Shown here piece after piece: positions 50 to 56,097 of a DNA stretch of 64,000 bases (position 1 is its first letter; each line of letters begins with the position of its first letter). Made by a program: the position numbers and the translations under genes. The notes beneath the pieces are model-generated. The model was not told the origin of the DNA. It searched no databases and saw only the letters and a list, made by a program, of their open reading frames with translations. Location of the stretch: the IMG/VR virus record IMGVR_UViG_2756170199_000003, positions 74,881 to 138,880 of that record. One strand, given 5' to 3'. The stretch is from a virus. Its lineage: Duplodnaviria; Caudoviricetes.

Positions 50-2155
50 TCAGGTTGTCGCGCTCGACGTCTGGTCCAGCCGGACGGACTGGATCACGAT
101 GGTGGCAACCGTCTTCATGCCGGCCGCGGCGATCTGCAGGATCGTGGTCCAGCTGTAGCCACGCTGCGCATCGGCACCCGTGATCGTGGTGGTGGGCGTG
201 ATCGTGAAGCGGTTATCGAAGATGTTCGCCACGCGCGTCGTGATGAAGTTGTTCACGTTCTTGATGAGTTGCGCGTTGGTCATTGAAGACACGCCACAGA
301 ACTGCCGGCGCGCCAGGTCGCCGATCTTCTCGAGCGTGCAGATCGCACTCACCGTAAAGAAACTGTTGAGCACCGACGTGTCGTTGTCGTAGATGGTTTT
401 CAGCGCCGGGAAGTACGCCTGCCGGCGCGCGCACGCCTCCACCCCCACCATGCCGTTGGCCCAGTCCTGGTTGCGTGCGGTTGCGCTCCAGAAGGTCACG
501 TTGATGTTCGAGAACAGGTTGATCTGCGAGCCCGGCTGCATGTCGAAGGCGTAGCCTGATTTCCACTTGCCATTGCTTGCACCCATGTAGGCGGCCGCCT
601 TCGACGCCAGCTCGATCGTCAGTGGCAGCGGGCCGGTGTAGAGCGAGCCCGTCAACGTGCCAGAGCCCGGCACCACCATGCCGCGTGCGCAGGGCGTGCC
701 GAAGTAGTCCGACTCCGGGTACTGCTGCAGGAACGCCTTGAGTGCCACCGCCATTGACGATTCCTCAGAGGCCGTCAGAGGTGGCGAGAGTGTCGAGAAG
801 GTCGACAGCGTGATGAAGGTGTCGGGACGTTGCGAAATGAACTGCGCGAGCGCCTTCTTGGTGTCGATGGGGAAGCCCGAATCCCAGAAATGGGAATACG
901 GGTACATCACGAGTTCCTGGATCGGATCGGCCGCATCGGCAAAGCGCGCCGCATCCTCCGCCACCAGCGCCGCGAAGCTCGCGTCATCCATCGAGCCATC
1001 GCTGCCGCCACTTGCCCACAGCGTGCTTGCCTGCCCCAGGTAGGCCGCGTCCGGATCCGTCGTATTGAACTGGAAGGTCGAGTATGGCGCGCCTCTGGAG
1101 GACACACCGCTCACGAAGTTGAATAGCCACTGCTCTCCATCCTCGCCGGTGAAATCGGAGAATGGATTGATTGCCGCGTCCTCGGCGGCGTAGAACATGC
1201 CAATGAGCGTGGCCAGATTGTCATCGTAGACGTGCAGGCTGCCAAAGGGGCCGTAGACGTCGGCTGTGCCCGCCGGGTTGTTCAGATCCTGCCACGCATT
1301 CAGGAAGATGTCCTGAATCGATATCTGCGCGTCGAGCGCCGTGTCGATCGTAGCCGGCTTGAACGTGACATCGAGATACGTCGAGCCGTTGGTCATGCGC
1401 GTCACGGTGCCCGTGCTCGAGGCCGAGGCGCGCGTGACACACGACACCCGGAACGGATAGACCAGGTCGTCCTCGATGAAGTTTGCGTTCGCTGGCGTCG
1501 ATGAGTTCGCCGTGGGCGCCCACAGACGCAGTCCGTTGTTATTGCCGTACGCACCAAAACTCGGCACCAGCAGATCGAGCACCGGATAGCGCTGCGAGGT
1601 ATCCGATCCGGAGGACTGGTCGCCCGCCAGAATCTGCACCTCACCGTAGTCACTCGTCCCATCGGGGTTGTAGGTCACAGTCGACACCACCCACTTGACG
1701 ATGTAGCCCGGCAGCGTCGAGTTTGCGCCCGTCACCGGTACGGGTGCGCCACTCTCGTCGGTTGTGAATGAGCCGTCCGTATTGCGCTCGTACTGCGTGA
1801 TCGGCGCAGGCATCACGTCGAGACAAAGGCGCAGTGATGCAGGCGGATTCGCGTCTGCCGGCTGCAGCCGCTTCACCATGATCGCGTTGCCCTGCGCGTT
1901 CACCGTATTGGCAAGCACAGTCGCGTGATTGGCCCAGGCCTTGCGCAGATCGAACGAATCGGCGCCATACATGTTGGTCAGATCGACGCCCGAAACGACC
2001 TCTTCCGTGACGGGGCCCATCTGGGCGTAGAGATAGATGTAGGGAAGGTGCTGGGGAATCTGCTCCGGGACGGGCGTCACCTGCTGCGTACTGAGGTCAT
2101 CAGTGCGCTGGAAGATGGTCATCGGAGCGCCATTGACAATCATGGCCGTTGTCAT
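50..2155 (-). CDS. Contractile tail sheath protein, phiKZ gp29-like
   Basis: ~700 aa. Start at ATG 2155 (MTTAMIVNGAP) with AGGA RBS. N-terminal PQHLP..YLYAQMGP, central GGSDG and WDSGFP, C-terminal FPALKTIYDNDTSVLNS and RGYSW as recalled for phiKZ-type sheaths. Divergent from the gp28-gp25-like block. Confidence 0.85.
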   Translation of the reverse strand: MTTAMIVNGAPMTIFQRTDDLSTQQVTPVPEQIPQHLPYIYLYAQMGPVTEEVVSGVDLTNMYGADSFDLRKAWANHATVLANTVNAQGNAIMVKRLQPADANPPASLRLCLDVMPAPITQYERNTDGSFTTDESGAPVPVTGANSTLPGYIVKWVVSTVTYNPDGTSDYGEVQILAGDQSSGSDTSQRYPVLDLLVPSFGAYGNNNGLRLWAPTANSSTPANANFIEDDLVYPFRVSCVTRASASSTGTVTRMTNGSTYLDVTFKPATIDTALDAQISIQDIFLNAWQDLNNPAGTADVYGPFGSLHVYDDNLATLIGMFYAAEDAAINPFSDFTGEDGEQWLFNFVSGVSSRGAPYSTFQFNTTDPDAAYLGQASTLWASGGSDGSMDDASFAALVAEDAARFADAADPIQELVMYPYSHFWDSGFPIDTKKALAQFISQRPDTFITLSTFSTLSPPLTASEESSMAVALKAFLQQYPESDYFGTPCARGMVVPGSGTLTGSLYTGPLPLTIELASKAAAYMGASNGKWKSGYAFDMQPGSQINLFSNINVTFWSATARNQDWANGMVGVEACARRQAYFPALKTIYDNDTSVLNSFFTVSAICTLEKIGDLARRQFCGVSSMTNAQLIKNVNNFITTRVANIFDNRFTITPTTTITGADAQRGYSWTTILQIAAAGMKTVATIVIQSVRLDQTSSATT

Positions 2156-2297
2156 GGTTGCGATCCTGAAAGGAAATGCTATGGCCTGGGGGTAATCTGG
2201 AATGGCGATGCGGCGCATCATATAAATTCGTCCGCTTCGCAATCCTCAATAACCTTCGACCACGTCATCACGAACTTTCAGGACGAGGCGGCGGAGA

Positions 2298-3242
2298 ATG
2301 AAACGCTATGCGACGGCGTACGAGACCACGCAATGCAGTGGCTATGTGCTGGACAAACTTGAAACATCGCTGAAAGCGGCATACCTTGCGGGAGCGCTTA
2401 TGCCTGCCAGTGAGGCGGCGACGGTACTCGAGGTACAAGGCGGTCAGCCACTTGCAGATGCGATACCCGAATTTGCCCACCCGTTTCTCGTCGCGCACGC
2501 GCACGGCGGCACTCACGACGAAGGTGGGACCATCGTGTTCGACGCTCGCCCATTCGGCGCCTTTGACCGCCTGCGCGGGCAATTCGTCGTCCGCAACGAG
2601 ATCGAATATGGCCTGCAGTTGCGACGCGCCCAGCTCAATGACATCTGGGTCAATGACGATCCGGCGTTGCTGCGGGATGCGTCACCGGTGGCAATGAGTT
2701 TCTTCGCGAGCTGGATCAGCGAGAACGTAGCCCGCCGCTTCGCGCTTGACCCGCGCGAGCAGCTGAATCTGGCGATCCTCAGCGCCATTCACTATCTCTC
2801 GCTGTTTGCCGATGAGGACAGCCTCGATACCCACGCGCGCCTGAAAATCGCAATGCAGGTCTCCCGCGGCCTACGCTGTCCGGCCGAGGATGTAATGACG
2901 CTGCTCGAGAAACAGCAGCATGCGGGCGCCGGCATTGTCGGTCTATGCGCGGATGCGGCTGACGCGACAGGCAGCGTGAGATTGCGCGAGCTCAGCCCCG
3001 GCATTCTCATCAGCATCATCAAGGGAACGTGGTGGGGCATCAATGCAGCCGAAATGCTCGCTGTCGCGCTTGAACATCCACCGACATGGCTCGCGCTGCT
3101 GGCCGCCGCGCACGTCGAGCGCACCTACCGCAACTCCGGCCTCGCGCGCATGGTAGAGCGCCAGGCGCATAAGGAACCGAACCAGCTCTTCCTGCGCGCG
3201 GTACTCAATCTCGCTCACCTGTCGGATCGTCGCGCTCATTGA
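2298..3242 (+). CDS. phiKZ-like virion structural protein (gp28-like by synteny)
   Basis: 314 aa ORF with GGAG RBS and an ALEHPPTW motif. Lies between sheath and terminase block. Confidence 0.65.
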   Translation: MKRYATAYETTQCSGYVLDKLETSLKAAYLAGALMPASEAATVLEVQGGQPLADAIPEFAHPFLVAHAHGGTHDEGGTIVFDARPFGAFDRLRGQFVVRNEIEYGLQLRRAQLNDIWVNDDPALLRDASPVAMSFFASWISENVARRFALDPREQLNLAILSAIHYLSLFADEDSLDTHARLKIAMQVSRGLRCPAEDVMTLLEKQQHAGAGIVGLCADAADATGSVRLRELSPGILISIIKGTWWGINAAEMLAVALEHPPTWLALLAAAHVERTYRNSGLARMVERQAHKEPNQLFLRAVLNLAHLSDRRAH

Positions 3243-3297
3243 CCCGCCTGCGCCCGCCTCCCCCTTCACTTCTCCGTCTTTCCACCCGGGTTTGGCC

Positions 3298-5940
3298 ATG
3301 TACGACTATCTCGTCGATAACGCGCTGCGCAACGTCTGGTGTGCGCCCACGCAGGACCGCCAGGCAATCCTGCAGCCCGCGCGCCTCACCCCGGATGGCG
3401 GAGTGACCAATAGCGTGCAGATCGACTGGTCTGAATACCAGCTGCCGGCAAGCAACGCACCATTCCACGTCTACCAGATCGGACAGATCAGTCCGTGGCT
3501 GCTCGGCCTGCTGGCGTGGGCCATCACCTGGACACCGTTCTCACTGGCGATGAACCGGTTGAACCTGATCGTCGACCTGTATGTGAACTCCGGCATCCAG
3601 CTACCGCGCTTCCAGTCGTATTTCATGATCACACGCGACCGCAACATCGTGATCGCGGTGCGGTTCCAGCCCACTATCAGCATCAATCTCGATCGCGAGC
3701 CACTGTGTCTGCGGCTCTACAGCAACGCCTTCTTCCAGAGCCCACGTGCCACCTCCGGCGACACAAAATACGTGATCCAGACGGGCGGGCTGGTACCAAA
3801 GCTCAAGAGCGACATCCTGCCCGTCCAGAACACCGTCACGGCACTTCAGGCACTTCCGGGCGTCGTGTACTGCTTCGTCAACGGCTTCAAGGTCGACGCC
3901 ATCAATGTCGTCACAGCGCAGCCCGGCGATGTGGTCGAGTACGTCTATGACAGTTCCATCTACCGGATCGCCGACTTCACGCTGTCCGGCCTGCCGGTAT
4001 TCAACAGCACGCTCGACAGCAAGTACAAGTACCTGCTTCATTACGATGGACGCGCCCGACATACCATCGACTTCGAGGACGACATCGATGTGTGGGTAAT
4101 CTATACGCTACCCACGAGTCTCACACAGGGCGTCTTCTACCACCACAACGAAGCGGATGCGATCCGCAACGTTACGCACCGCGACTACGCGTTGCCTACG
4201 GCCTACGTGGCGGGCTACCTCGCGGCGCGCGGAAACTGGGAGTCAGAAGCAAACGTCACGATCCGGCTGCACATCCGTCGGGCCGGACTCGAGCGCCCGC
4301 TCGTCTACGAGGCCAACCGCATTTTCGAGCTTTACAAGCTCAGCGATGCCCAGATCGTGAGCGCATTGGCGGGCGTGAACGCCACGCTTGAAAACTGGCA
4401 GGCGGCCACGCTGGAAGCGTCGCCCTACACCCGGATCATGGGCGCATACGGTGGTGTCGCGGCGAGTTCAGGTGGTGCCAATACCTTCGACCGCCAGACG
4501 GTCGAGGATGCGTACGGCTATAACGCCACGGGCCGGCTCGTGGGCATGAGCCCGCTGATCCCCGTGCTGGAATCAGGCCAGTTGCTCGTTAGCCTCCCCT
4601 ACAACCTCCAGAGCAACGTCACGGCGTGGGAATACGACAGCAACGGCACGCTGCTTGGCTACTACGGCCACGCGAGCGGTGGCGTGTATGTCTGCGAGAA
4701 CAGCAACTGTGTGCTCGTCGAGGTGATCTATGGCGGCGCCGCCCAGATGCCCGACGATACCTACGGGCAGGCCACCCAGTTGATCGATACGCGTCTGGAC
4801 TACCGCATGTACACGTGCGATATCGCGTCTCTCACCGGCAAGCCGCTCTTCAACTGGCGCGACGTCACCGGCAGCAGCCAGTATGCGATCCAGGACGGCA
4901 TCCTCACGTGGCTGATCGACACCACCAAAGCCTATACATGTGTGCGAAGCAACCGCACGATGCTCGCCTACACGCTGTACATCCAGCCAAAGGAAGGCAT
5001 CCTGCCGATTGAGATCCAGCAGCAGGGCATCCTCAACTACGTGCTGCAGCTCTTCGCGATGCAGATCCCGATGGGCCAGCTCGACGTGTTCGTGAACGGC
5101 CGCTCCATGATCCAGGGCCTGGACTATGTGATGCAGTTTCCCACGATCATGATCAACAACGTCTCGGCGCTGTCGTTTCCGCAGGACAGGCAGCAGCAGA
5201 TCACGATCCGCTGGACCGGATTCTGCAGGAACGATCTGTCGATCCCGTCCCATCGCGATACGGGCTGGGTGCAGTACGGGCTGCTCTCGAACAACAACCG
5301 CTACAACATCCGCGACGACGACGTTACCCGCATCGCGGTGGGCGGTGGCGTGTTCCCGAAGTCCGCACTAAAATTCGCCGAAGACGACGCCAACATCCTC
5401 TCGCCGCTGCCCGTCAACGGGCTGCCGTATCAGGTGCAGAAGGTGGTGGTGCCGATGCTGGGGGTCACCAACGAGGATACCCAGACCTACTTCGACAAGG
5501 CTCTCGCGATCGACCGGGCCGTCGAAGACTACATGACGCTCTACTATCCGCTGCCGGCTCCCGGTGCAGCAAGCGGCCCGGACGTCATCAACGCGCTCTA
5601 CCCGCTTTTCAGCCCCTTCTGCTGCAAGATCATCTACGACCTCGTGCTCGGCATCATCGACGAGACACCCCTGCAATCGTTCTACAACGACGACTTCGTG
5701 CGTGGAGTCTGCCAACCCTATGAGTATCTGCTGGCGTTCGACCCGACCCAGCCAGCCACCGCGCAGGATCCGCGGTTCGTGAGGATCCAGCCGCACAACC
5801 TGACCGTGACCATTGCGCTCGACATCTATGCGTACAACTTCGTGAACAACGTGATCCGCATCTATCTGAACAACCTGGTGCTGCTCAACAACTACGTATC
5901 GATTGCCGATCTGGCGGGTAGCAGCGCGATCGGCAGTTGA
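3298..5940 (+). CDS. phiKZ-like virion/baseplate structural protein (gp27-like)
   Basis: ~880 aa. NVWCAPTQDRQ N-terminus, FHVYQIG and VFVNGRSMIQGLDY motifs. Synteny with sheath and terminase. Confidence 0.75.
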   Translation: MYDYLVDNALRNVWCAPTQDRQAILQPARLTPDGGVTNSVQIDWSEYQLPASNAPFHVYQIGQISPWLLGLLAWAITWTPFSLAMNRLNLIVDLYVNSGIQLPRFQSYFMITRDRNIVIAVRFQPTISINLDREPLCLRLYSNAFFQSPRATSGDTKYVIQTGGLVPKLKSDILPVQNTVTALQALPGVVYCFVNGFKVDAINVVTAQPGDVVEYVYDSSIYRIADFTLSGLPVFNSTLDSKYKYLLHYDGRARHTIDFEDDIDVWVIYTLPTSLTQGVFYHHNEADAIRNVTHRDYALPTAYVAGYLAARGNWESEANVTIRLHIRRAGLERPLVYEANRIFELYKLSDAQIVSALAGVNATLENWQAATLEASPYTRIMGAYGGVAASSGGANTFDRQTVEDAYGYNATGRLVGMSPLIPVLESGQLLVSLPYNLQSNVTAWEYDSNGTLLGYYGHASGGVYVCENSNCVLVEVIYGGAAQMPDDTYGQATQLIDTRLDYRMYTCDIASLTGKPLFNWRDVTGSSQYAIQDGILTWLIDTTKAYTCVRSNRTMLAYTLYIQPKEGILPIEIQQQGILNYVLQLFAMQIPMGQLDVFVNGRSMIQGLDYVMQFPTIMINNVSALSFPQDRQQQITIRWTGFCRNDLSIPSHRDTGWVQYGLLSNNNRYNIRDDDVTRIAVGGGVFPKSALKFAEDDANILSPLPVNGLPYQVQKVVVPMLGVTNEDTQTYFDKALAIDRAVEDYMTLYYPLPAPGAASGPDVINALYPLFSPFCCKIIYDLVLGIIDETPLQSFYNDDFVRGVCQPYEYLLAFDPTQPATAQDPRFVRIQPHNLTVTIALDIYAYNFVNNVIRIYLNNLVLLNNYVSIADLAGSSAIGS

Positions 5941-5957
5941 TCGATGCCGGAGGTCGC

Positions 5958-7664
5958 ATGTCCGACTTCGGAAGTTCAGTCGAGCTGCCGGTCGGCACCG
6001 ACGGCGGCGTACCCATCAAGAGCCCCGACAACAGCCTGTGGGAGATCTGGGCCTACCAGAATCTCTGGCTCGGCGCCGCGGGCACGAACAAGTACATACC
6101 GAAGATCAACGACTACGTCTGCGACTACACGATCAACCAGTGGTGGAGAGTCGCGCTGGTCGATCCCGTCACCTACGTGCCGACGCTCGTGCCGCTCACC
6201 ACCACACCCAATGCGGCGATGACCGAGGGGGACCTGCTTCAGGGCGTGGGGCTTGGCACGCTTGCCGACACGTTTCGCGTCTATCTCGACACCAGCGTCA
6301 TTCCGTTCATCCTCGCCGTGGACGGCAGGCTCTGGTATCCGGGGCCCGATGTCGCGTCAGTCAAGCTTTTCACGGGCGCGGATTTCACCACCAACGAGAA
6401 CTGCATCAGCGGCTACTACGACCAGTCGGGCAAACTGGTTTCCCAGGCGATTCCCCTCGCACCCGTGTCGGTCGAGTTCCCCGATGGCTCCATGGGTACG
6501 GTCTCAGGCGTGCCGGTCTGTTACACGAACGTGCGTCTGGCTGACGCCACGCCGGTCACCGCGGTCGCCTACTCCTCGACCGGTGCAGTCGTATCCATCC
6601 GGCAGCTCCTGATCCAGAACACCGGTTGCATCCGTCTGGCCGACTCCGGCGTGAAGTATGTCGTGGGGATCGAACTCAGGACACCGTTCCTCTCAAGCTC
6701 GGACCCGACGCTCATCCAGTTCCCGATCAATGTGATTCTCGCGAACCTGAACCTGATGGGCATTGTGCGTTACAGCGACGGTTCGAGCGCCATGCTGCCA
6801 GTGGACAACACGAAGTTCCAGATACTCGGCTTCAATGCCTTTGTCTCGACAATCGTCGGACAGTCCTTCAACGTCGTGCTCAAGTACAACCTCTCGCCCG
6901 ACGAGGCGGTCTTCAACGCGAATTCGGTCGAACAGCAGGGGTTCATCACCCGGGCCTACCGGATGACGTCCATCAACTCCGCCGGTGCGTACGCTCTCAA
7001 GCTCTTCGCTTTCCCCGTCTGGCGCGACAGTGTCACGGGCTACCGGCTCGACTGGTTTCTCTACAACCTCGATCGCAGCACCTGGTGGAATGTCACGAGC
7101 CTGGTGCAGTTCTCGCCAGCTTTTCCGGCCTTCCAGCCGCTGCAGTACGGCGTGCAGCAGGACATCAACGCACAGGTGCAGCTGAGCAAGGTCGACCTGA
7201 GCTTCACGAACTATCTTTTCAGTGCCACGCTGGCGATCACGCTGCTTGGACCCGGCATGCAGGACTCGCCCTGGCAGATCCAGTTCGAGCCTGGGCAGAT
7301 GCCCCCCTACGGTCCCGGCAATGTCGCAGCTGTCAACGAGGTCCAGGCCAACCAGTACACGATCAATATCGCCAGCGGCTATAAAAAGCAGGGCGACTGG
7401 CTACAGGCGCTCTATTACAACACCCTGCCGCTGACCGATCCGGCCACCGAGGCGAAGTTGCCGGTGCCGAGCCACTTCGCGATCCAGATGCCCGATGGCA
7501 GCGAGCCGATCGTCTGCCCGATCTCGCAGTGGGCGGCGACGTTCAGCACGAGCGTGACGATTCCCGACGACAGCACGCTCTACGTAACGTTCTTCCTGCG
7601 CACCACGACCAACGACCTGCAGCTCTCGATCTGCGGCCTGCCGGTGCGCTATCCGGGTACGTAG
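5958..7664 (+). CDS. phiKZ-like virion structural protein (gp26-like)
   Basis: GGAGG RBS before ATG 5958. ~570 aa beta-rich protein (YIPKINDYV, KLFAFPVW). Directly upstream of terminase. Confidence 0.7.
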   Translation: MSDFGSSVELPVGTDGGVPIKSPDNSLWEIWAYQNLWLGAAGTNKYIPKINDYVCDYTINQWWRVALVDPVTYVPTLVPLTTTPNAAMTEGDLLQGVGLGTLADTFRVYLDTSVIPFILAVDGRLWYPGPDVASVKLFTGADFTTNENCISGYYDQSGKLVSQAIPLAPVSVEFPDGSMGTVSGVPVCYTNVRLADATPVTAVAYSSTGAVVSIRQLLIQNTGCIRLADSGVKYVVGIELRTPFLSSSDPTLIQFPINVILANLNLMGIVRYSDGSSAMLPVDNTKFQILGFNAFVSTIVGQSFNVVLKYNLSPDEAVFNANSVEQQGFITRAYRMTSINSAGAYALKLFAFPVWRDSVTGYRLDWFLYNLDRSTWWNVTSLVQFSPAFPAFQPLQYGVQQDINAQVQLSKVDLSFTNYLFSATLAITLLGPGMQDSPWQIQFEPGQMPPYGPGNVAAVNEVQANQYTINIASGYKKQGDWLQALYYNTLPLTDPATEAKLPVPSHFAIQMPDGSEPIVCPISQWAATFSTSVTIPDDSTLYVTFFLRTTTNDLQLSICGLPVRYPGT

Positions 7665-7702
7665 CGGGATAACTGCTCGAGGCACCGGGCCAGTATCTGA
7701 CC

Positions 7703-7743: not shown

Positions 7744-7763
7744 TCTGACGGGAGGGCGTCAAC

Positions 7764-12754: not shown

Positions 12755-12799
12755 CCGCGTATTTCTGAAAGCATTCCAGTAACCAAAGGTTCCGAGAAT

Positions 12800-19470: not shown

Positions 19471-19587
19471 GTCAGGGAGTCGTCACACACAACAGCTACG
19501 GGATCATGGATGCTGGTTGGGCAGCATCCATGATCCCGTAGCTATTTTTCTTCGCAATCCGAACTCATACACAAGGACCAATACGCT

Positions 19588-24251: not shown

Positions 24252-24265
24252 AAACGCGAGGCGTC

Positions 24266-25026: not shown

Positions 25027-25027
25027 G

Positions 25028-25543: not shown

Positions 25544-25590
25544 TTTTACCTGCCGTGCTCATGCTGTGTCAGCCTGGATGGAGAGCAGAC

Positions 25591-31732: not shown

Positions 31733-31837
31733 CGCGCAGGTATTTGAGCCTGTACGGCCTGTGCATAGGTTTTTATTGAACCGGGTAATCCAGTGCAGGT
31801 ACCCCCTTCATGCGCACCACCCGCACGGAGAAAGAAA

Positions 31838-45053: not shown

Positions 45054-45142
45054 CCCTGTAGCACCCGAACGGGCACCGCACAGAAGCTTTTTTGTGCTGT
45101 GTTCCAGCGGGAGCGGTGGAGACGTTTTTTCAGGAAGACCCC

Positions 45143-47443: not shown

Positions 47444-49437
47444 GACGCTTCGCTGCCAGGACGCTGCTGGGCCACAGCACTGAGGCGCTGTGGGGCATGC
47501 TTTACGGGCCCTTCCGGCTGGTCTTTGACGACGGTGAGCTTGAGGTGGATCACCGCTCGACGCTGTACAGCAGCTATGGCTGGGATCTCCTCAGGGAATA
47601 TCCCGCGGCACCCATGCTCATGCGGCATCACGTGACGCATGTCCTGAATGGTCGACGCCTGAACACCGACACACACCTGAAGCTGCTGGCCAACGTCGAC
47701 TGGGACGTGCTCGACGCTTACGGAGAGCACGGTCAGCGCGATCCCTCCGTGACGATCGACCGGATCGGCCGCCGGACCTGTGAGATCGTCAACGCGATGT
47801 ACAACGATCTGTCCGTACGCCTGGAGGAGTACGTCGTCTCGTTCGATATCACGGACTTTGTTGATGTGGTCGATCATCCACCGATCGTCAAGGCAAAGAG
47901 GGCTATCTACGCGGTGCCGCTCGACAAGGTCACAGACCGCATGCTCGACGAAGCGTATGCGGATGTGGGCAGGATCATCCGCGAAGATCCTGCGCTCGAT
48001 CGCAATCCCATTGTGATCGGGGCGCGCTCGAACACGGTGCGCTTCGAGCAGTTGCTCGAGTGCGTGGCGTTTCGCGGCAAGATCACGGACATCGATTCGA
48101 ACCAGTTCGAGTTGCCGATCCTGCCGAGCTACACCGAAGGCATCCGCGGTTTTCGTGATTCGCTCATCGAATCGCGCTCGGCGGCCAAGGCACTCTTCTT
48201 TGCGTCCGCGCCGCTGCAGGATGCCGAGTACTTCTCCAGACGCCAACAGCTCATGGCGATGAATATCCAGCGTCTTCATCATGGTGACTGCGGCACTACG
48301 GAGTTCACGCACTGGATGGTGCGCAAGGAGGACCTGCGGCTGCTCGCCGGGATGAACCGGCTCGATGAAGAGTCAGGCGAACTGCTGTGCATCAGCAAGC
48401 AGGACACGCATCTGGTCGGCAAAACGATCCGGTTGCGTACCGTACTGCATTGTGCGCATCCCGATCCGGCGGGAGTGTGTTCAACCTGTGTGGGTGAGCT
48501 TGCCCGATCGGTTCCCGATGGTACGAATATCGGGCACCAGTTCTGCATGGTGCTGTTTGGCCAGTCCACGCAGCTGGTGATCTCCATCAAGCACCTGGAC
48601 AAGTCCGCATCTATCGAACCTGCCGTGCTCCTTGAAGCCGACAGGCTGTTCCTCAAACTTGGATCCGACGCCAATTCGTATCTGCTCGCCGATCGTCTGA
48701 AGGGAAAGAACATCAGACTCATCATTCCAGCGGAGGCCATACCGAACATCAACGACATTTTCGAAATCGACGATGTCGAGAACCTGAACATCGCACGCTT
48801 CTCCAGCATCGGGCGCATCAGCATCCTCGTGGGTACCTCGGACGAGGCGACCGGGCCTGACATTCCGACCCGTGCCGGTCAGCGCATCGCGTCCATGACC
48901 CATGAACTGATGCGGCACATCAGGAAGGTGGGCTGGACGAATGACGGGAAAGGCAATCACGTCATCGACATGCATGGCTGGAATGCGTCGCATCCCATTC
49001 TTGCCTTGCCCTTCAAGCACTTCAACATGTCCGATCATTCGAAAGACATTGCGAAACTGCTTGAGTCAAGCGTTGGCATGATGCAGGCACGGGACAAGGA
49101 TACGCGGCCGGACGACGCGCTCGTCGAACTCTTCGACCTCGTCAACAGCAAGCTCGATGTGAGCCTGGCCATCCTTGCCATTGTGCTCAAGCAGGCCATG
49201 ATTGTCTCGGCGGAGAACCGCGACTACAGCTTGCCCAAGCCAGGGATGACCGCCGGGCTGGGTGTGATGTCGCAGTCGATGAAACACCGCTCTCTTTCTG
49301 CTGCGATGGCGTTTGAACACCACCGCGAAGTGCTGACGGACCCGGTCAGCTTCCTGCACAAGCGGCGTATGGATCACCCGTTCGACGTGTTCCTCATGCC
49401 ACGCGAAATCCTCCAGCCCGAGACGTTGTCCACCTGA
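47440..49437 (+). CDS. Non-virion RNAP beta' C-terminal subunit (phiKZ gp74-like)
   Basis: GGAGG RBS with ATGA overlap. RG..TDIDS, ESRSAAK, EYFSRR.Q, DCGT, Zn-site C..P...VC..C.G, IS.KH and RSLS..MAFE motifs. Confidence 0.9.
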   Translation: MRRFAARTLLGHSTEALWGMLYGPFRLVFDDGELEVDHRSTLYSSYGWDLLREYPAAPMLMRHHVTHVLNGRRLNTDTHLKLLANVDWDVLDAYGEHGQRDPSVTIDRIGRRTCEIVNAMYNDLSVRLEEYVVSFDITDFVDVVDHPPIVKAKRAIYAVPLDKVTDRMLDEAYADVGRIIREDPALDRNPIVIGARSNTVRFEQLLECVAFRGKITDIDSNQFELPILPSYTEGIRGFRDSLIESRSAAKALFFASAPLQDAEYFSRRQQLMAMNIQRLHHGDCGTTEFTHWMVRKEDLRLLAGMNRLDEESGELLCISKQDTHLVGKTIRLRTVLHCAHPDPAGVCSTCVGELARSVPDGTNIGHQFCMVLFGQSTQLVISIKHLDKSASIEPAVLLEADRLFLKLGSDANSYLLADRLKGKNIRLIIPAEAIPNINDIFEIDDVENLNIARFSSIGRISILVGTSDEATGPDIPTRAGQRIASMTHELMRHIRKVGWTNDGKGNHVIDMHGWNASHPILALPFKHFNMSDHSKDIAKLLESSVGMMQARDKDTRPDDALVELFDLVNSKLDVSLAILAIVLKQAMIVSAENRDYSLPKPGMTAGLGVMSQSMKHRSLSAAMAFEHHREVLTDPVSFLHKRRMDHPFDVFLMPREILQPETLST

Positions 49438-49530
49438 GCGCCAGTGGCAAGGAGCGGCAACCAGAAAATACCTCCCCAGGGCATCTGTTGGCAGACAGAT
49501 GCCCTCCTTTTCTTCATCGAGATTTTTGTC

Positions 49531-51078
49531 ATGGCGGAGTTACGCATATCGACACGATCGCATCATTTCGTGGTCGACCAGATGTCGCCCCAGGGCAGGC
49601 AGGCCACGGAGAGATTCGCAAGGCAGTTCATCCACTATGGTCGCCGGCAACGCGCCCAACGCTATAACAGGTACAGCGCCCGCAACGCCCGCTCCGTCAG
49701 CGAGTACTCTGCGTGGCGCGAGGACCGCCGCGAGTGTCGCTTCCATATCAACGTGCTCGAGCGCTTCGAGCAACACCTCAAGGACTACGGACTCGATCAT
49801 GAATCTCTGGTGGAGCGGGTCGCAGAAGTTCCACCTCCTGCATGCAGGATCGCGCTCCTGATTCGCGAAGGCTGGTCGCTGCGTGACTACCAGGAGCCGG
49901 CTGTCAATTACGTCACTGCGGATGCGGGCTCACGATCACGGTTTCTGGGTCTGCAGACTGGCAAGGGCAAGGGGATCACTGCGCTTTTCGCAATCAGGGA
50001 TCTCGCAGTGAGGACGCTCGCCTTCCTGCAACCGAAGTACATCGAAAAATGGGTGATGGACATCCGCGAGATCTGTCAGGTCGAACTCGAAGACGTGATG
50101 GTCGTGCGCGGCGTTCAGCATCTCAAGGCACTCCTCACGATGGCCGGTTCTGGCAGTCTGCACAGCCCGATCGTGATCATCAGCAGCAAGACCATGCAGC
50201 GCTGGATCAACGTCTACGAGCAATATGGCGAGGAGACGCTCAAGATGGGCTACGCCTGCCTGCCTGATCAACTGATGGGTTGGCTTGGGGTGGGCTTGCG
50301 GCTGATCGATGAAGTGCACCAGCATTTTGCGATGCAGTTCCGTCTGGATCTCTATACGCACTGCGAACGTTCGTTGTCGCTTTCTGCAACGCTGCTGCAC
50401 ACCGACGGCTTCCTGAACCGCATGTACGAAGTCGCGTATCCGGACGCGACGCGTTACAACGGGCCGGCCTATGACCGGTATGTTCGCGCCACTGCCCTCT
50501 TCTACCGGTTCAGGCACCCACGACATATCCGCTTTCTCGATCCCCTGAGCCACAGCTATTCGCATTATCGCTTCGAAATGAGCGTAATGAAGGATCCGGC
50601 CGTGCTGGACAGCTATCTGGATCTGATCGACAGCATTGTGAAGTCGAAGTATGAGCTCACTTATCGGCCCGGAGAAAAGCTCGTGATCTTCTTCGGCTCT
50701 GTAGCGATGTGTACGCGCGCGACAGCGTTCTTTCGCGCGCGCTATCCGGGCCGGGATGTACGGCGTTATGTTGAGGAGGATCCGTTCGCGAATGCGATGG
50801 AGCCCGACATGGTCATTACGACCTTACAGTCGTACGGCGCCGCATTTCATCCGAAGGAGCTATCCACCGTCATTCTGACGGTCGCTGTGAACAGCCTCCA
50901 GGCCAATCTGCAGGTCCTCGGACGGCTGCTTCCACTTTCGGCTGGGAAGACTCCGGAATTCATCTATCTGGTCTGCATGGATATCGCACAGCACCGGATC
51001 TATCACGAGAGCAAGGTCGAGCTCTTCCGGCAGCGCGCATTGCACTGCGAAACGCAGTACGTGCATGCGCCGATATGA
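49531..51078 (+). CDS. Superfamily 2 DEAD/DEAH helicase (phiKZ gp75-like)
   Basis: Q motif LRDYQ, QTGKGK, DEVH, SAT and Q.LGR motifs. Confidence 0.88.
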   Translation: MAELRISTRSHHFVVDQMSPQGRQATERFARQFIHYGRRQRAQRYNRYSARNARSVSEYSAWREDRRECRFHINVLERFEQHLKDYGLDHESLVERVAEVPPPACRIALLIREGWSLRDYQEPAVNYVTADAGSRSRFLGLQTGKGKGITALFAIRDLAVRTLAFLQPKYIEKWVMDIREICQVELEDVMVVRGVQHLKALLTMAGSGSLHSPIVIISSKTMQRWINVYEQYGEETLKMGYACLPDQLMGWLGVGLRLIDEVHQHFAMQFRLDLYTHCERSLSLSATLLHTDGFLNRMYEVAYPDATRYNGPAYDRYVRATALFYRFRHPRHIRFLDPLSHSYSHYRFEMSVMKDPAVLDSYLDLIDSIVKSKYELTYRPGEKLVIFFGSVAMCTRATAFFRARYPGRDVRRYVEEDPFANAMEPDMVITTLQSYGAAFHPKELSTVILTVAVNSLQANLQVLGRLLPLSAGKTPEFIYLVCMDIAQHRIYHESKVELFRQRALHCETQYVHAPI

Positions 51079-51220
51079 ACGGCATGCCCCCGTATGTGTG
51101 AAGGCATCCGTTTTAATTAGTAATCCGAACTTAATTGAAACTGGATGTGAACACATATCACGACACCGGAGCACGCCGTGGGGCCGTGCCTTCACTTATT
51201 TACCCAGGAGGGAGATGATC

Positions 51221-51781
51221 ATGCTTACGCTCGTACGCGATGCTGTGCTGGAGCGTCCGGCTGAAAAGCCGGAGTTCGGCAAAAGTGTAGCCGTGCTGGA
51301 GCAGTTTGGCTTTTACGACTACGCAACGATCGGGGTAGCAGACGCCCGTCTGCACTTCACCGTCGGAATGACCGAGGTGAACCTGCCGGAATTTTTCGTA
51401 ACCGGGAACGTGTCAGATGGATATGCCGGGGATCTGTTTGCGGCCGTCAGCAAGGAATTCCTGACGACGAAGGGACGTACCGCGCTTGGGATCCGCGGTG
51501 ACCTGATGCCCTTCCCTGTCGAGTTGCGCCTGATTGCAACGCCTCTGGAGCGGCGGCTGCCGGCCGAAGGGGGCAGCTATGCGGATATGATGAGGTGGCT
51601 CGATTGGCACTGGCCAGGGCGGGTCTGCATGGTGCAGATCATCTGGCCCGACGACAGCGGCCGGTTGCCAGACGAAACAGGGTTTGATGCCACCTGCTGT
51701 CGCCAGACCGTTCATCCACGACTGCCGTTTATCGGTGGCACGGTCTCCGATGCGTGCGCACTCCAGGGAGGCAATGCATGA
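51221..51781 (+). CDS. DUF4262-like protein
   Basis: AGGAGG RBS. FTVGM....PE..V.G and QIIWPD..GRLP motifs. Confidence 0.6.
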   Translation: MLTLVRDAVLERPAEKPEFGKSVAVLEQFGFYDYATIGVADARLHFTVGMTEVNLPEFFVTGNVSDGYAGDLFAAVSKEFLTTKGRTALGIRGDLMPFPVELRLIATPLERRLPAEGGSYADMMRWLDWHWPGRVCMVQIIWPDDSGRLPDETGFDATCCRQTVHPRLPFIGGTVSDACALQGGNA

Positions 51782-52380
51782 GTGCACTCGATACGCTGTA
51801 CCGCAATCGCGACCGGAATCAGGTGGAGTTTGACCGCTTCGAAGGCCAACTGTTGGAGCTTATCAGGAGGTCCCGTGAGAGCGGCCCATTGCCCGCGGCC
51901 ATTCGTGAGTTGCGCGATGTTGCCTCATTGAAAGCTGGCGATGACGAGGCCCGTTGCGTCGCGGTACATCAATGCCAGAGGCTGCTGTGGTGGCTTGCCA
52001 AACCAGCCTGGCAAGTCGACGAGGCGTGTGGACTGGTCTACGGGGTCGATCCCGCTGCGGAGAGAGATGGTGCCGCACAGGCTGGCTGTTATGCACTTGA
52101 CGGACGGCTGCTGACCGCCGATTCGTCAGAGGCGTATCACGCGTGGCTTCTGCTCGAGTCGCTCTATCTCCACATGGAAAACCGGATCGAGCAAGCCATC
52201 ACCGTTTCCGATCTTTCCTGCGAAATCAGTCCGGCTGATTTCATCAACTGGTGCCACGATGAGGGCGTCGACACAAGCTACCTCCGGTTGATCCGCACAC
52301 TTGTTGGTCTTGGCGAAAACCGGCTTGTGGGACGGCTACCACTTGCTGACGTGCAGATCTTCGTCTCAGGCAGGCAATGA
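51778..52380 (+). CDS. Hypothetical protein
   Basis: GGAGG RBS and ATGA coupling, 200 aa. Confidence 0.55.
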   Translation: MSALDTLYRNRDRNQVEFDRFEGQLLELIRRSRESGPLPAAIRELRDVASLKAGDDEARCVAVHQCQRLLWWLAKPAWQVDEACGLVYGVDPAAERDGAAQAGCYALDGRLLTADSSEAYHAWLLLESLYLHMENRIEQAITVSDLSCEISPADFINWCHDEGVDTSYLRLIRTLVGLGENRLVGRLPLADVQIFVSGRQ

Positions 52381-53613
52381 CGAAGCCTGCCGCAGGGTCG
52401 GCCCTTGCACGCGATGGGACTGGGGCACTCCCGGTCCCATCTCTTCCTTCTCATTTTTTTTGTCTTTCCGGCCAGGCTTGACCAGATCCAGGATCCCCTC
52501 GACGTAGGCACGGGTAGTCGCCGTCACGGGCCTTTTGGCTTCGGTTTTCGTGATCGGGGCGACCGAAGCCGCGGGCGTAACTTCACGCAGGCGGCCAGAG
52601 GCCAGCGCTGCGGCAAACCCCACCTGCCAGTTCGGCACCTGACGCGCAACTGCTTCCTCGGCGTTGTAGACGGACAGGCATTCGCCCGACGTATCCACGG
52701 TGTGAGTATTCCCGTCCGTATCCTCGAACGATTTCCCGGCGTTCTGCCTTGCGATAGCGCGTGCCTGTACGACGCGTTGCTTGCGTGCCTGGTCTTCGGC
52801 GCGAGTTTCGTTGCGCTGGCGCAGCTGATGCGAGAAATCGACCGGGTTGTTCAGCAGGGAGCCGAGATAGCAGATCGGACGCTTGGCGAGCTTCAGGTGT
52901 TGCCACGTGACTTCGACGACATCGGAGAGACGCTTACCGGCCTCACGTGCCTGACGCATGAGTTTAAAGATCAGGAAATCAGAAAAACCCAGGGTGCGAA
53001 GGCGCTGAAGATCCGACGGCACCTCGCCCGGTTGTCTCTTTTGAAAAGAAGCAGGGGAAAGATCCTTATATATACCACCGTGTGCCACCGTGGCAGACGG
53101 TGTATTTGCTTCTTCTGGGGTCTTCGGTTCGGCAGTGCTGGCAGTGTCCGCGGTGGCGGTAACGACTGGAGCAGGGCGCGGCTCGATAAGCCCAAGGAGC
53201 TCTGCAGCCTGCCCGGTCAGGTGGAGATATGCGCGGCCAAAGAGACCTGCTTCGACATAGCGGGTCTGGGGACGACGTTCGATAAGTCCGGCCTGTTCGA
53301 GATCGTCCAGGGCACGGTAGAGCGTGCGCATGGATTGGAGGGCCCGGCCGGTAAGGAGCTCTCGGCGGGCAAAAATCGATGCGAAGGGGCGTCCGGCGTC
53401 GACGGTGCGAGCGAGCGCTGAGAGCAGGGCGCGGGCACGTTGCGAGATGCCGTCAATGTGGTTTGCTCGAAATGCGGCGCGGAAGATCACCCACGGAAGA
53501 TTCGTGGTGTCGCACTGGAACGCCGAGAGGGCGTCCTGATCGGCCGGGTCAGCAGGGGCTGGAGAAGGGTGTGTTGATCCCTCGCCAGCAACGAAGTGTT
53601 GCGCGATAGACAT
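52366..53613 (-). CDS. Plasmid replication initiator (Burkholderiaceae 'replication protein O'-like, winged HTH)
   Basis: 415 aa. N-terminal wHTH (SMRTLYRALDDLEQAGLIER), LIFKLM..A...GKRLSDVV. Third gene of a parA-parB-rep cassette. Confidence 0.72.
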   Translation of the reverse strand: MSIAQHFVAGEGSTHPSPAPADPADQDALSAFQCDTTNLPWVIFRAAFRANHIDGISQRARALLSALARTVDAGRPFASIFARRELLTGRALQSMRTLYRALDDLEQAGLIERRPQTRYVEAGLFGRAYLHLTGQAAELLGLIEPRPAPVVTATADTASTAEPKTPEEANTPSATVAHGGIYKDLSPASFQKRQPGEVPSDLQRLRTLGFSDFLIFKLMRQAREAGKRLSDVVEVTWQHLKLAKRPICYLGSLLNNPVDFSHQLRQRNETRAEDQARKQRVVQARAIARQNAGKSFEDTDGNTHTVDTSGECLSVYNAEEAVARQVPNWQVGFAAALASGRLREVTPAASVAPITKTEAKRPVTATTRAYVEGILDLVKPGRKDKKNEKEEMGPGVPQSHRVQGPTLRQASSLPA

Positions 53614-53650
53614 GTCGAGCGTTCCATTTCGAAAAATGGATTGAAAACGC

Positions 53651-53678
53651 TTGACTGGCTATTTCACTGCGCTACACT
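53651..53678 (+). promoter_or_regulatory. Sigma70-like promoter antisense to rep leader
   Basis: TTGACT-N16-TACACT. Confidence 0.55.
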
Positions 53679-53684
53679 CGGGGC

Positions 53685-53795
53685 TTGTCGAAGCGCCTTT
53701 CCAGTTTCCAGCTGGAGAGTGTAGTGAGCGAAGGTTTCCAGCCAAGCCCACTTACGCAAAAGCCCTCAGTTTCCAGCTGGGGGCTTTTGTCTTTC
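53685..53795 (+). ncRNA. Putative counter-transcribed copy-number control RNA (ctRNA)
   Basis: Promoter above, plus terminator CAAAAGCCCTCAG-tttccag-CTGGGGGCTTTTG followed by a T-rich tail, in the parB-rep spacer on the opposite strand. Confidence 0.5.
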
Positions 53796-53863
53796 TGGCA
53801 GTTATTTCACTGTGTCGTCCTTATCCGTACTACGGATCGCAATAAAATCAATCACTTAGTGTT

Positions 53864-54856
53864 TTAAGATTTCACTGCAAGTGTTTCGAGGTGTTGCTTG
53901 ATGGCTTCTTGAACAGCATCTGCGACGGCTTCGGACTGGAATTCGATGCGCATGATGTTTTTTGTCTTGCGCACGTCGCACCACGTACTTTTCCCGGCCT
54001 TTACCTTGTACGACTCGGCGACCACCTTGACTGCCTTGGGCGTCTCGACGGCCTTCGCATATTTGACCGCCTGCCCTTGATCCAACTCACACTCAGAGAG
54101 GCGTCGCACCGCTTCCACAACTCGATCTGTCTTCCCGCCTTCTGCAATGGTTGCCAGCTCCGCTGCCGCGTTGGCACCCATGATTGCCTTGTTGGCTTCG
54201 AGGATTGCGAGTGCTTGCTCGGGCAGGCGGCTGAAAGAGAGAAGGGCGTTGATGTGCGAGCTGCTGATGCCGACGCGCTCACCGAGCTCCGCCTGACTCA
54301 GTTCGGGATGCTTTGCATGGATGCGCGTCAGGCCGATGTACTTCTCATAGTCGGTCAGGTCTGACTGCATCAGGTTAGCCCAGAAGGCGCCGTCATCTGC
54401 TTCGTCACCCGTGGCATCACCCAGTACACAGCGAATGCTCGAACGGCCCAGTTCCCGATAGGCGTCGACCCGATGATGACCCGACTGGATTTCATATCCG
54501 CCTTCCGCACGAGGCAGGATGACAACCAGTTGGATAAGTTTGTTGTGACGCAGGTTCTCCCGCAGCTCGCCGAATTTTTCGGGCGGCATATAGCGTCGGC
54601 GGCCCGCGACTTCATGTATCTGGTCGAGCGGAATCTCGACACCGCTCGGCGAGCCGCTCTGCTTCTGGGCTCGGAGTTCGGCCAACTCCGCGGACATTGC
54701 ATCGATTTCGGCTTGCTTTTCACGCATCGCCGATTGGAACGCCAACGCCCCACCGGGGGCAGTTCTTGGGCGGAAGGGATCACCGGCAGTCGAGTGGGAG
54801 GGCTCAGGGACCTCGATGTCCTTTGTTTTTTCACTGAGTCGTTGTGCGGCGCGCAT
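53864..54856 (-). CDS. parB: ParB/RepB partition protein
   Basis: ParB box YEIQSGHHRV.A, AN..QSDL..YE, HTH SQAELGERVGISSSHI. TAATG coupling with parA. Confidence 0.92.
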   Translation of the reverse strand: MRAAQRLSEKTKDIEVPEPSHSTAGDPFRPRTAPGGALAFQSAMREKQAEIDAMSAELAELRAQKQSGSPSGVEIPLDQIHEVAGRRRYMPPEKFGELRENLRHNKLIQLVVILPRAEGGYEIQSGHHRVDAYRELGRSSIRCVLGDATGDEADDGAFWANLMQSDLTDYEKYIGLTRIHAKHPELSQAELGERVGISSSHINALLSFSRLPEQALAILEANKAIMGANAAAELATIAEGGKTDRVVEAVRRLSECELDQGQAVKYAKAVETPKAVKVVAESYKVKAGKSTWCDVRKTKNIMRIEFQSEAVADAVQEAIKQHLETLAVKS

Positions 54857-56097
54857 TAGACCTCCATCTGGGAAGACGACCACGCTTGAACAAACTGCGA
54901 GTCGATATGCCTGACCAACTGATCCATCGGATCCTTGAATCGCGTGTATGCCGCGACGCTGCCTTCGGGCTTCGTTAGGTCATAGACGGTAGAAAGCTGA
55001 GCAGATGCGCTCTTGGGGACGACCGACTCTGGGATTTCATACGGGAGAACACGATCTCCGTACGCCTTTTGAAGCCAGCCTCGAACAACGCCAGAAAGAT
55101 CATCGTTCTTGGATTTAGTCAGGACGACATTAACAAAGTCGAAGTTCTTCGTCTCGCGCATTGCCGGAACGTGGCGCGCCATTTCCGTGAAGAGAAACCA
55201 GAATTGCGTGGAACTCGCGAAGTCGAGGCCTTCAGGCGGGCAGGGCATCAGTAGTCCGTCAGCCGCCATCAGAGCGTTGATGGTCAAATAACTCAGAGAG
55301 GGCGGGGTGTCGACGATGATTGCATCGTATCTGTCCTTGATGTCGGCCAGACCTTGATTCAGGATGTTCCAGAACGCGAACTCGTGGTCGCCGGCCAGCT
55401 TGCCGGGAATATGAAATTCAGCGCTGAAGAGTCCGGACGACGCGGGGATCAAGTCTAGGTCTTGCCAGTAGGTTTCCTGAATTGCGTAGTCCAGTCCCGA
55501 CTCATCCCCGTAGATCAGAGGCATGAGTGTCTTTTCTTCGCTTATTTCCGTCTCGGGGGAGAAGCCACATAGCTGTGTTGCGGTACCTTGCGGATCACAG
55601 TCAATAACCAGAACCTTTCGGCCGCGCAAAGTGAGTCCCTGTGCCAGCGAGACGGCGGTTGTGGTTTTCGCTACACCACCCTTGAAGTTGGCGACAGTCA
55701 CAACCTTACCGGGCGCGTTTTCTGGTCGCGCAGGACGATTGCCAGCAGCGCGGATGTAACGTAACGTTTCGTCCAAGGTGAAGGTCTTGCTCTTGCCGTT
55801 GCCAATTGATGTGCCGGCGGGGAGGTCGCCCTTCGTGGTCAGGTACTGAAATCGCAGTTTCTCGAGTCCACAAAGGCTCGCGACCTGCGCACTGGTGAAC
55901 GTGGGCGGACGCTTGCGCGGGTATGGTTCCAGCATCCGGTCGCGAATCTGATTGAGTACCCCAGCTGCGCGCTCGGCGACGTCGGCCAAGGTGTCCATGG
56001 ATGCGGCAAAGTCGAGCGCAGGCGGCAGTTTGGTAGCGAGCAAAGTGCTTGCATTCACGAGAGAAACCTCTTGATTGTGAATTCCTCGGTTTTTCAA
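54856..56097 (-). CDS. parA: ParA/RepA type Ia partition ATPase with N-terminal HTH
   Basis: NFKGGVAKTT, VIDCDPQG, IVDTPP. N-terminal MerR-like HTH. Exact start uncertain. Confidence 0.95.
   Translation of the reverse strand: MKNRGIHNQEVSLVNASTLLATKLPPALDFAASMDTLADVAERAAGVLNQIRDRMLEPYPRKRPPTFTSAQVASLCGLEKLRFQYLTTKGDLPAGTSIGNGKSKTFTLDETLRYIRAAGNRPARPENAPGKVVTVANFKGGVAKTTTAVSLAQGLTLRGRKVLVIDCDPQGTATQLCGFSPETEISEEKTLMPLIYGDESGLDYAIQETYWQDLDLIPASSGLFSAEFHIPGKLAGDHEFAFWNILNQGLADIKDRYDAIIVDTPPSLSYLTINALMAADGLLMPCPPEGLDFASSTQFWFLFTEMARHVPAMRETKNFDFVNVVLTKSKNDDLSGVVRGWLQKAYGDRVLPYEIPESVVPKSASAQLSTVYDLTKPEGSVAAYTRFKDPMDQLVRHIDSQFVQAWSSSQMEV

Follow-up and report, generated by a model that had tools for sequence, protein, structure and literature searches.

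A complete plasmid replicon linked to a chimallin-encoding jumbo phage genome in Paraburkholderia

Can a phage that builds a protein nucleus around its genome also be inherited as a plasmid? The question is raised by a 64,000-nucleotide stretch of viral DNA (the window), which is the final 64 kb, i.e., the right half, of the single 138,880-bp virus record IMGVR_UViG_2756170199_000003. The record originates from a soil metagenome, and the element that it samples is referred to here as the soil element. Nucleus-forming phages of the Chimalliviridae are generally treated as strictly lytic, and the protein nucleus excludes host enzymes, which seems at odds with a quiescent state that depends on the host replisome. 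The recent reviews that we checked do not discuss temperate, lysogenic or plasmid chimalliviruses, and no published description was found of a chimallin phage with par/rep genes, or of the clade described below. The original prediction, made from the window alone, was that a nucleus-forming jumbo phage core is joined here to a plasmid parA-parB-rep cassette. This is supported by the presence of the same linkage in six elements: a chimallivirus genome is physically linked to a complete plasmid replicon, and the arrangement is conserved, under selection and resident in cultured Paraburkholderia. The lifestyle that accompanies this arrangement is something we infer, and it is weighed after the evidence for the linkage has been given.

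The plasmid module and its linkage to the phage genome

The final core phage gene ahead of the plasmid module encodes a non-virion SNF2-type helicase (49444–51078, plus strand; phrog_16), a homologue of gp250 of Erwinia phage RAY (E 1e-79) and of FLC9 gp368. From the helicase stop codon to the rep stop codon is 1.29 kb and, as had been predicted, neither an insertion sequence nor an integrase lies between them. The only genes in this interval, at 51065–52380 on the plus strand, encode a DUF4262 protein (PF14081) and a 208-aa protein; no homologue of either was present in the stretch of Burkholderia phage FLC9 that was compared (272–322 kb).

The plasmid module itself lies on the minus strand and consists of rep (52366–53613), parB (53864–54883; PF02195, PF17762) and parA (54856–56097; PF13614). 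By homology, Rep is a plasmid replication initiator of a Burkholderiaceae family often named 'Replication protein O'. Its 485 detected homologues are mostly from Paraburkholderia and Caballeronia, and the family is carried by 117 PLSDB plasmids of Burkholderia, Cupriavidus, Caballeronia, Paraburkholderia and relatives (in 91 of these the match covers at least 80% of the query), with 0 matches in 50,697 phage records. Searches of Pfam, NCBIfam and PHROGs with Rep returned nothing beyond weak matches of the winged helix-turn-helix type. Assignment to RepC of repABC replicons (PF03428/PF11800) was rejected, there being no Pfam or NCBIfam match and a likeness in architecture only. ParA is a type Ia, RepA/SopA-like protein, likely of 400 aa, for which the top-scoring model is repABC RepA; TIGR03453 matched it at E 2e-63, below the cut-off of that model. 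Its best phage matches, at 29–35% identity, are in N15, PY54, phiKO2 and similar phage-plasmids. All six elements keep intact Rep, ParB and ParA, i.e., replication and partition genes stand on a phage genome as they do in phage-plasmids, and the gene order together with the Rep family equals that of the plasmid pOLGA2.

The spacer between parB and rep (53614–53863) contains an inverted repeat, two GTTTCCAGCTGG boxes 65 bp apart, an antisense promoter and a terminator. In the promoter scan, a sigma70-like promoter (TTGACT-16-TACACT; 53651–53678, plus strand) was directed against the operon, and the terminator scan placed a hairpin followed by a T-run at 53768–53795 on the same strand. Across five elements with protein divergence of 20–55%, this 250-bp spacer hardly varies. 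Alignment with pOLGA2 showed the same layout there, with a terminator stem that is different in sequence yet still pairs. The interval 53651–53795 (plus strand) would yield a candidate antisense RNA of ~110 nt, similar to a counter-transcribed RNA (ctRNA), and the spacer is probably a copy-control region as in repABC; the predicted RNA might control copy number throughout this Burkholderiaceae plasmid family. Neither the window nor the spacer matched an Rfam family, a Thr_leader match being discarded as a chance match to the terminator. Upstream of parA, ~200 bp are nearly invariant in four elements (56098–56310) and hold the inverted repeats GAACTCTAGC/GCTAGAGATC; this region is likely the par promoter/operator and perhaps parS.

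The order parA-parB-rep, small genes, helicase and non-virion RNA polymerase (nvRNAP) is repeated in five other independent assemblies of 275–286 kb, so that the co-occurrence of chimallin, partition and rep genes extends well beyond the window. Three of these assemblies are from isolates: Paraburkholderia sp. HC6.4b (282,688-bp contig; Rep 76% identity), Paraburkholderia adhaesiva ZD32-2 (284,264-bp contig) and Paraburkholderia sp. BCC1886 (286,074-bp contig), the last two being species-representative genomes that were recovered via an alignment of the nvRNAP β subunit. The other two are metagenome contigs of 275,198 bp (Rep 85% identity) and 278,988 bp (found via ParA). Both small junction genes are kept in the 275,198-bp element, in the HC6.4b contig and in the half-length provirus record that corresponds to it. 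In all three isolates the element is a separate contig of ~280 kb, and no integration junctions were seen. The ends of the BCC1886 contig share an exact 125-bp direct repeat and the contig therefore closes as a circle, which provides a circular replicon in an isolate assembly on which capsid genes and rep/par are carried together; in the soil record only half of such a replicon is covered. In both isolate genomes that were searched, the Rep family has a single copy, located on the phage contig. The nvRNAP β subunit and Rep diverge in a like order, with identities of 92% and 85%, respectively, for the 275,198-bp element and 80% and 76% for HC6.4b.

Within the module, the genes have different histories. 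ParA is 97–98% identical among four elements (synonymous divergence, dS, 0.26), and Rep in the same elements is 85%, 75% and 53% identical; BCC1886 reverses the pattern, with 46% identity for ParA and 63% for Rep. ParA proteins of at least 87% identity were found on two ~280-kb contigs of the clade and on one 6-kb contig, and the next, at 68%, on ordinary plasmids. The locus is fixed but par and rep have been exchanged separately, and the module therefore behaves as a replicon selected for function and compatibility. On the most likely reading, the clade lineage took up a complete Burkholderiaceae replicon just downstream of the nvRNAP-helicase block.

These relatives are not readily found. 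Exact-protein look-ups with the soil chimallin and ParA gave no match, single-protein locus scans of viral and genome collections gave no relatives, and an alignment query was needed to find them; megablast of PLSDB gave no match and a protein search of PLSDB gave no full element. The form in which such elements are recorded is also relevant. IMG/VR classes the soil record as a provirus (CheckV completeness 52%), its first bases are a start codon and its final bases a stop codon, and neither the soil contig nor the P. adhaesiva contig has a terminal overlap. The soil contig is collinear with 49.8–188.6 kb of the P. adhaesiva contig, which identifies it as a trimmed half rather than a small defective element. 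Another IMG/VR provirus, UViG_2852743531_000003 (141 kb, 53% complete), gave matches to the window proteins identical to those of the HC6.4b contig, and is therefore taken to be the 282,688-bp contig cut in half. Provirus trimming seems to have halved the HC6.4b replicon (141 of 283 kb) near the plasmid-like region, and the soil record, with its 52% completeness and its ends at gene borders, looks to have been cut likewise. Since trimming halves such replicons, elements of this sort are easily missed.

Two further observations were made in the searches with nvRNAP β. Short fragments of the gene occur in another Paraburkholderia genome (contig C4:43954–44220) and in a 545-kb Cupriavidus plasmid (NZ_CP017750.1:360759–361256), and may be relics of such phages. 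The 222-kb record NZ_CP134650.1, filed as an Enterobacter ludwigii plasmid, has an nvRNAP β match (21% identity, 77% query coverage) and is possibly a jumbo phage.

Chimallin and the phage core genes

The gene at 29676–31685 (plus strand) encodes a 669-aa protein that matched chimallin, the shell protein of the phage nucleus (PF25677, 36.9 bits against a cut-off of 27). By sequence, it matched Goslar chimallin 7SQT in the PDB (E 2e-6), and 681 relatives of chimallin length were counted among 1.84 billion representatives. An AlphaFold (AF2) model built on an alignment of 73 relatives reached a mean local confidence (pLDDT) of 80 and a predicted template modelling score (pTM) of 0.80, with N- and C-terminal tails below pLDDT 50. 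When this model was compared with the PDB by Foldseek, all nine matches at E ≤ 1e-3 were solved chimallin chains (E 5e-31 to 5e-27, TM 0.76–0.84), and there was no other significant fold. The gene sits between a neighbour of the family-B DNA polymerase (PolB) and nvRNAP β′1, as it does in RAY (gp220-gp223) and in FLC9. Its profile, sequence, modelled fold and position all indicate that the window gene is a real chimallin, and the earlier designation as chimallin-like is confirmed by a Foldseek result that contains solved chimallins only. Identity is about 30% to the chimallin of FLC9 and about 19% to the solved chimallins. When the soil and P. adhaesiva elements were compared for the ratio of non-synonymous to synonymous substitution rates (dN/dS; dS for this pair is 0.8–1.4), chimallin was the fastest-evolving core gene: dN/dS was 0.34, and it shares 55% identity with its P. 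adhaesiva copy compared to 75–82% for its neighbours.

Around chimallin, the phage genes that the original prediction had named in the window are intact and where it had placed them, with the correction that three nvRNAP subunits, not four, could be named. The β′1 subunit is encoded at 31793–33343 (PF00623; homologous to RAY gp223, E 3e-68), β2 at 45092–47443 and β′2 at 47314–49437, all on the plus strand; the β2/β′2 pair matched phrog_3295 (678 bits), phrog_3015 (589 bits) and PF00562, and the two proteins are homologous to RAY gp248 and gp249, respectively. The homologue of β1 lies outside the range of the soil contig and was found in the full-length relatives, which together with the window subunits makes up the split multisubunit nvRNAP of Chimalliviridae. 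A similar qualification applies to the polymerase that had been described as a split PolB: the divergent family-B part is in the window (open reading frame 25411–27789, plus strand, with a Pfam match from about 25627; PF20286, 744 bits), together with its partner SH3DP (24239–24673, plus strand; PF20287), and the second part lies outside the soil contig. Just upstream of PolB, on the minus strand, is a SET-domain (lysine methyltransferase-like) gene (25028–25543; PF00856, 70 bits). An SbcD-like nuclease, homologous to RAY gp238, is encoded at 36473–37714 (plus strand; phrog_100).

Virion genes occupy the left part of the window. A tail sheath of the phiKZ gp29 type (50–2242, minus strand; PF20961, E 2e-43; homologous to RAY gp179), 93% identical to the P. 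adhaesiva copy, is followed on the plus strand by genes for a gp28-like vertex protein (2298–3242; PF25614), a DUF7193 virion protein (3292–5940; PF23823, 852 bits), a virion structural protein (5937–7664; phrog_3430) and the large terminase TerL (7764–10025; phrog_2, E 9e-53; 39% identity to RAY gp183 over 694 aa). In the upstream half of the soil contig we found the tail tube, a 2,248-aa SLT-domain tail protein, UvsX, RNase H and an SMC-like protein, as well as the β′1, β1 and β2 subunits of the virion RNA polymerase (vRNAP); with the β′2 subunit found in relatives, the split vRNAP of Chimalliviridae is complete. The phage genes are GC-rich, as had been noted, with GC at third codon positions (GC3) of 0.72–0.85.

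Probing with RAY proteins showed that the P. adhaesiva and BCC1886 elements each encode the major capsid protein (MCP), virion helicase, DnaB, four vRNAP and four nvRNAP subunits, both PolB parts, PhuZ, chimallin, TerL, sheath and tube. Pfam searches of the P. adhaesiva element added PhiKZ_MCP (PF25620, 400 bits), two internal head proteins (phiKZ_IP) and a second tube family. Taken with the sheath, tube, gp28 and TerL of the soil contig, these make up a capsid and tail of phiKZ type. Absence or decay of capsid and vRNAP genes, which had been given as grounds for regarding the element as a defective relic, was thus not what the full-length relatives showed: MCP, head proteins, all RNA polymerase subunits and PhuZ are present. 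The tubulin gene PhuZ, with two small neighbours, is missing from the soil element at 19131–19587, the place where the P. adhaesiva element has them.

In the comparison of the soil and P. adhaesiva elements, more than 15 genes for virion, transcription and replication functions have dN/dS values of 0.015–0.16 at dS about 1. The tube is at 0.015, the sheath at 0.057, TerL at 0.072, the polymerases and RNA polymerase subunits at about 0.10 and the giant tail protein at 0.16, and the element is therefore not decaying. The replicon proteins ParA, ParB and Rep are also under constraint (0.03–0.25; ParA 0.033, Rep 0.25). In all five full-length elements the total length is 275–286 kb although their cargo differs, and this uniform size suggests that a capsid packaging limit still acts.

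Lifestyle of the element and alternative explanations

The arrangement of promoters bears on how such a genome might be kept silent. The motif TATATCAC, with a TTCAA-like element upstream, has 6 occurrences in the window where 0.38 are expected, each of them on the coding strand (8952, 19069, 29601, 34129, 39645 and 45046), where it precedes chimallin (29601), nvRNAP β (45046) and other genes. It is found at orthologous sites in the elements of the P. adhaesiva and BCC1886 isolates, and it resembles the predicted phiKZ promoter TATATTAC (PMC7058600). It is likely a promoter for a phage RNA polymerase. Key phage genes keep these phage-type promoters, presumably unread by the host polymerase, and these could therefore offer a simple, if speculative, route to silencing in a plasmid state.

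The genes added to the phage core are of host type. Directly after TerL, on the plus strand, are genes for VgrG (10247–12754; PF05954, PF13296, PF10106), a VRR-NUC effector (12800–13771; PF08774, marginal at 22.7 bits against a cut-off of 23.8) and a TsiV immunity protein (13789–14808; PF11876, 152 bits), which form an orphan type VI secretion system (T6SS) island of the TseV/TsiV type. Relatives are without the set at that site, and GC3 of the effector and immunity genes is 0.54–0.56 compared to 0.75–0.85 in the flanks. In the P. adhaesiva element, a T6SS region of ~49 kb (taking in 18–48 kb of the contig) is near-complete, with TssB/C, TssF, TssG, TssA, TssM, ClpV, VgrG, a Tle3 effector and an ankyrin protein, and an AbiJ abortive-infection gene lies near parA (locus 11994–13139). 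The cargo of HC6.4b includes a PIN toxin and a TIR protein, and that of the metagenome elements KfrA in one and H-NS, a macro domain and a ligase in the other. The H-NS-family gene, in the 278,988-bp element, is close to parA (5266–5592) and could be a silencer of the resident genome. Differing cargo of host type is typical of resident elements.

Thus, the T6SS component of the cargo that had been taken to fit a lysogenic lifestyle is present as the VgrG/VRR-NUC/TsiV set, and the other two components need revision. The SET gene was found, but since P. adhaesiva has a similarly sized gene at its position, it may belong to the conserved genes of the clade and not to the cargo. What had been called a transposon is a small gene with two tyrosine-recombinase-like genes (168, 743 and 459 aa; 58622–62619, minus strand), an insertion specific to the soil element which begins 2.5 kb beyond parA and is lacking in P. 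adhaesiva. PF00589 passes for the 459-aa protein only, the others having weak XerA and DUF6262 matches, and by these matches the trio is tentatively Tn554-like. A cluster of DnaA boxes at 58388–58686 (two perfect TTATCCACA 26 bp apart and two near-perfect) stands beside an AT-rich stretch and flanks the trio, with a further perfect box on its far side at 62701. As a replication origin (oriV) of the clade, this cluster was rejected; no relative has it, and it is therefore probably part of the inserted element. Between parA and the trio are four small accessory genes (105, 130, 104 and 102 aa; 56911–58304, plus strand) that are conserved in the clade: the 275,198-bp element has the full set, HC6.4b all but the 105-aa gene and P. 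adhaesiva the last two only. The 130-aa protein has a sub-threshold ribbon-helix-helix match in Pfam (E 0.044, 14.2 bits against a cut-off of 20.5). At the right end, an SOS-response-associated peptidase (SRAP) gene (63092–64000, plus strand; PF02586, 154 bits), at whose stop codon the record ends, has a homologue of 90% identity at the same position in P. adhaesiva.

We consider it probable that the clade represents a ~280-kb phiKZ-like myovirus of Paraburkholderia-type hosts that behaves as a phage-plasmid. After entry, or in a fraction of infections, its genome would be kept as a low-copy circular plasmid. Rep would fire an origin dependent on the host replisome, copy number would be set by the antisense RNA and inverted repeats conserved in the parB-rep spacer, and ParA and ParB would segregate the plasmid copies. 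Lytic genes would stay quiet largely since the host sigma70 polymerase would not recognise their promoters, which phage polymerases serve, and host-expressed cargo would act in the living host, i.e., the VgrG-nuclease-immunity set and, in relatives, T6SS, AbiJ, toxin-antitoxin (TA), H-NS and KfrA genes. Some trigger would start the lytic, nucleus-forming cycle.

A more far-reaching proposal, possible but on balance doubtful, is that this is a truly temperate nucleus-forming lineage in which latency requires no classical repressor and is maintained by host enzymes and the Rep origin, by ParABS and by the silence of the phage genes. Almost all phage genes would then be silent, given that TATATCAC-type promoters would need phage polymerases and daughter cells would contain no virion polymerase. 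Induction would need just the host-driven expression of one polymerase set, and a resident giant phage would equip its host with T6SS weapons and with defence by abortive infection.

Several observations weigh against a phage-plasmid lifestyle. No repressor, immunity or anti-repressor gene was recognised, small open reading frames included. No origin was located and there is no conserved iteron array; the repeat ATTTCACTG was rejected as an iteron as it is not conserved in relatives. No tool named a portal in the soil element or, by Pfam, in its relatives, and a 988-aa homologue of RAY gp290 is a portal candidate only. The soil contig is only half an element, at a depth of 1–4x. The element is rare, occurring in 2 of 213 Paraburkholderia species genomes (plus one relic). 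Lytic chimalliviruses also occur as isolate contigs and presence in isolates alone therefore proves little, and a circular assembly also fits a circularly permuted virion genome.

Some of these points would suit a domesticated or defective derivative, i.e., a megaplasmid that arose from a chimallivirus and forms no infectious virions, its phage genes being host-beneficial or recently inactivated. The large host-type cargo, such as the ~49-kb T6SS region, the missing PhuZ of the soil element, the unnamed portal, the fact that no virion has been observed and the relic nvRNAP fragments in other Burkholderiaceae replicons all agree with this alternative, which the original prediction had itself allowed for. 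It is weakened by purifying selection on more than 15 core genes over dS about 1 and by a core set that is intact in three divergent lineages. Phage promoter motifs are kept at orthologous sites, size is constant, and loss of PhuZ is sporadic even among active chimalliviruses. We regard domestication as rather unlikely.

A strictly virulent chimallivirus caught in a carrier state or persistent infection, with par/rep genes that are incidental or used in the lytic cycle, is in our view improbable. Published surveys report hundreds of lytic chimallivirus genomes (Seoulvirus, Goslarvirus) as whole contigs in isolate assemblies, no repressor was found here, and circular assembly is expected of permuted genomes. 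Against this, the persistent phages of those surveys, which were explicitly checked, are without ParA and replication genes, whereas here all six elements keep an entire replicon at the same locus, cis control region included, and purifying selection acts on it. T6SS, AbiJ, TA and H-NS cargo pays only in a living host, and Rep presumably needs host replication proteins, which are perhaps barred from the phage nucleus.

That the linkage is an assembly chimera, or that rep/par come from a different replicon, is scarcely credible: the soil contig does have low depth (short contigs of 300–700 bp from one soil-metagenome run, which contains 47% of the sampled words of the soil sequence, match it at 100% identity and an even 1–4x, with no joints and one uncovered bin, a depth that spans the phage and rep/par parts alike and is by itself weak support for the junction) and Logan contigs have loose ends within the conserved parB-rep region, but six independent assemblies have the junction in common (three of them from isolates, one closing as a circle), the divergence of the phage genes follows the same order as that of Rep, and Rep is single-copy in the isolate genomes, on the phage contig.

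If the clade does behave as a phage-plasmid, nucleus-forming biology can coexist with vertical inheritance. It is probable that some members of this supposedly strictly lytic family live as plasmids. Cultured strains in which the switch could be studied would be at hand in P. adhaesiva ZD32-2, Paraburkholderia sp. BCC1886 and HC6.4b. Jumbo phages in isolate genomes would have an explanation other than a carrier state, and phages of ~280 kb would be revealed as vehicles of T6SS and defence genes.

Comparison with known systems

The phage-plasmids P1, N15, PY54, phiKO2 and SSU5 likewise combine a tailed-phage genome with their own initiator and type I ParAB. Compared to phage-plasmids of the P1/N15 type, the clade is five-fold larger, has genes for its own RNA polymerases and protein nucleus, has no recognisable immunity of the C1/CI type, and derives its replicon instead from a Burkholderiaceae megaplasmid family. 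The jumbo plasmid-prophage pBtic235 of Bacillus thuringiensis, compared by its description only, has maintenance functions and is not reported as nucleus-forming. Persistent virulent jumbo phages/BAPS are also found as whole genomes in 'pure' cultures, but par/rep, which they lack, are present in the clade.

Among plasmids, the circular conjugative pOLGA2 of P. phytofirmans has the same parA-parB-rep order, parB-rep hairpin and antisense promoter. Burkholderiaceae parA-parB-rep plasmids of this kind have Rep family identities of 50–58% and a closest ParA of 68%; in contrast, the replicon of the clade sits inside a phage and its ParA allele is phage-specific. The architecture is also like that of alphaproteobacterial repABC.

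With the Chimalliviridae (phiKZ, 201phi2-1, PhiPA3, Goslar and RAY), the clade shares the chimallin fold, split vRNAP and nvRNAP, phiKZ-type virion genes and divergent PolB, to which its relatives add PhuZ, and gene order matches RAY and FLC9. The nearest cultured relative is FLC9, followed by the Ralstonia phages RP12, RP31 and FLC1-1B. Synteny with the lytic FLC9 extends from the chimallin neighbour to the helicase, but at the site where the plasmid module stands FLC9 has unrelated small genes and no cassette. The clade departs from known Chimalliviridae in its high GC, in the extent of its host-type cargo (T6SS, Abi, TA and H-NS) and in carrying a rep-parAB replicon together with the control region.

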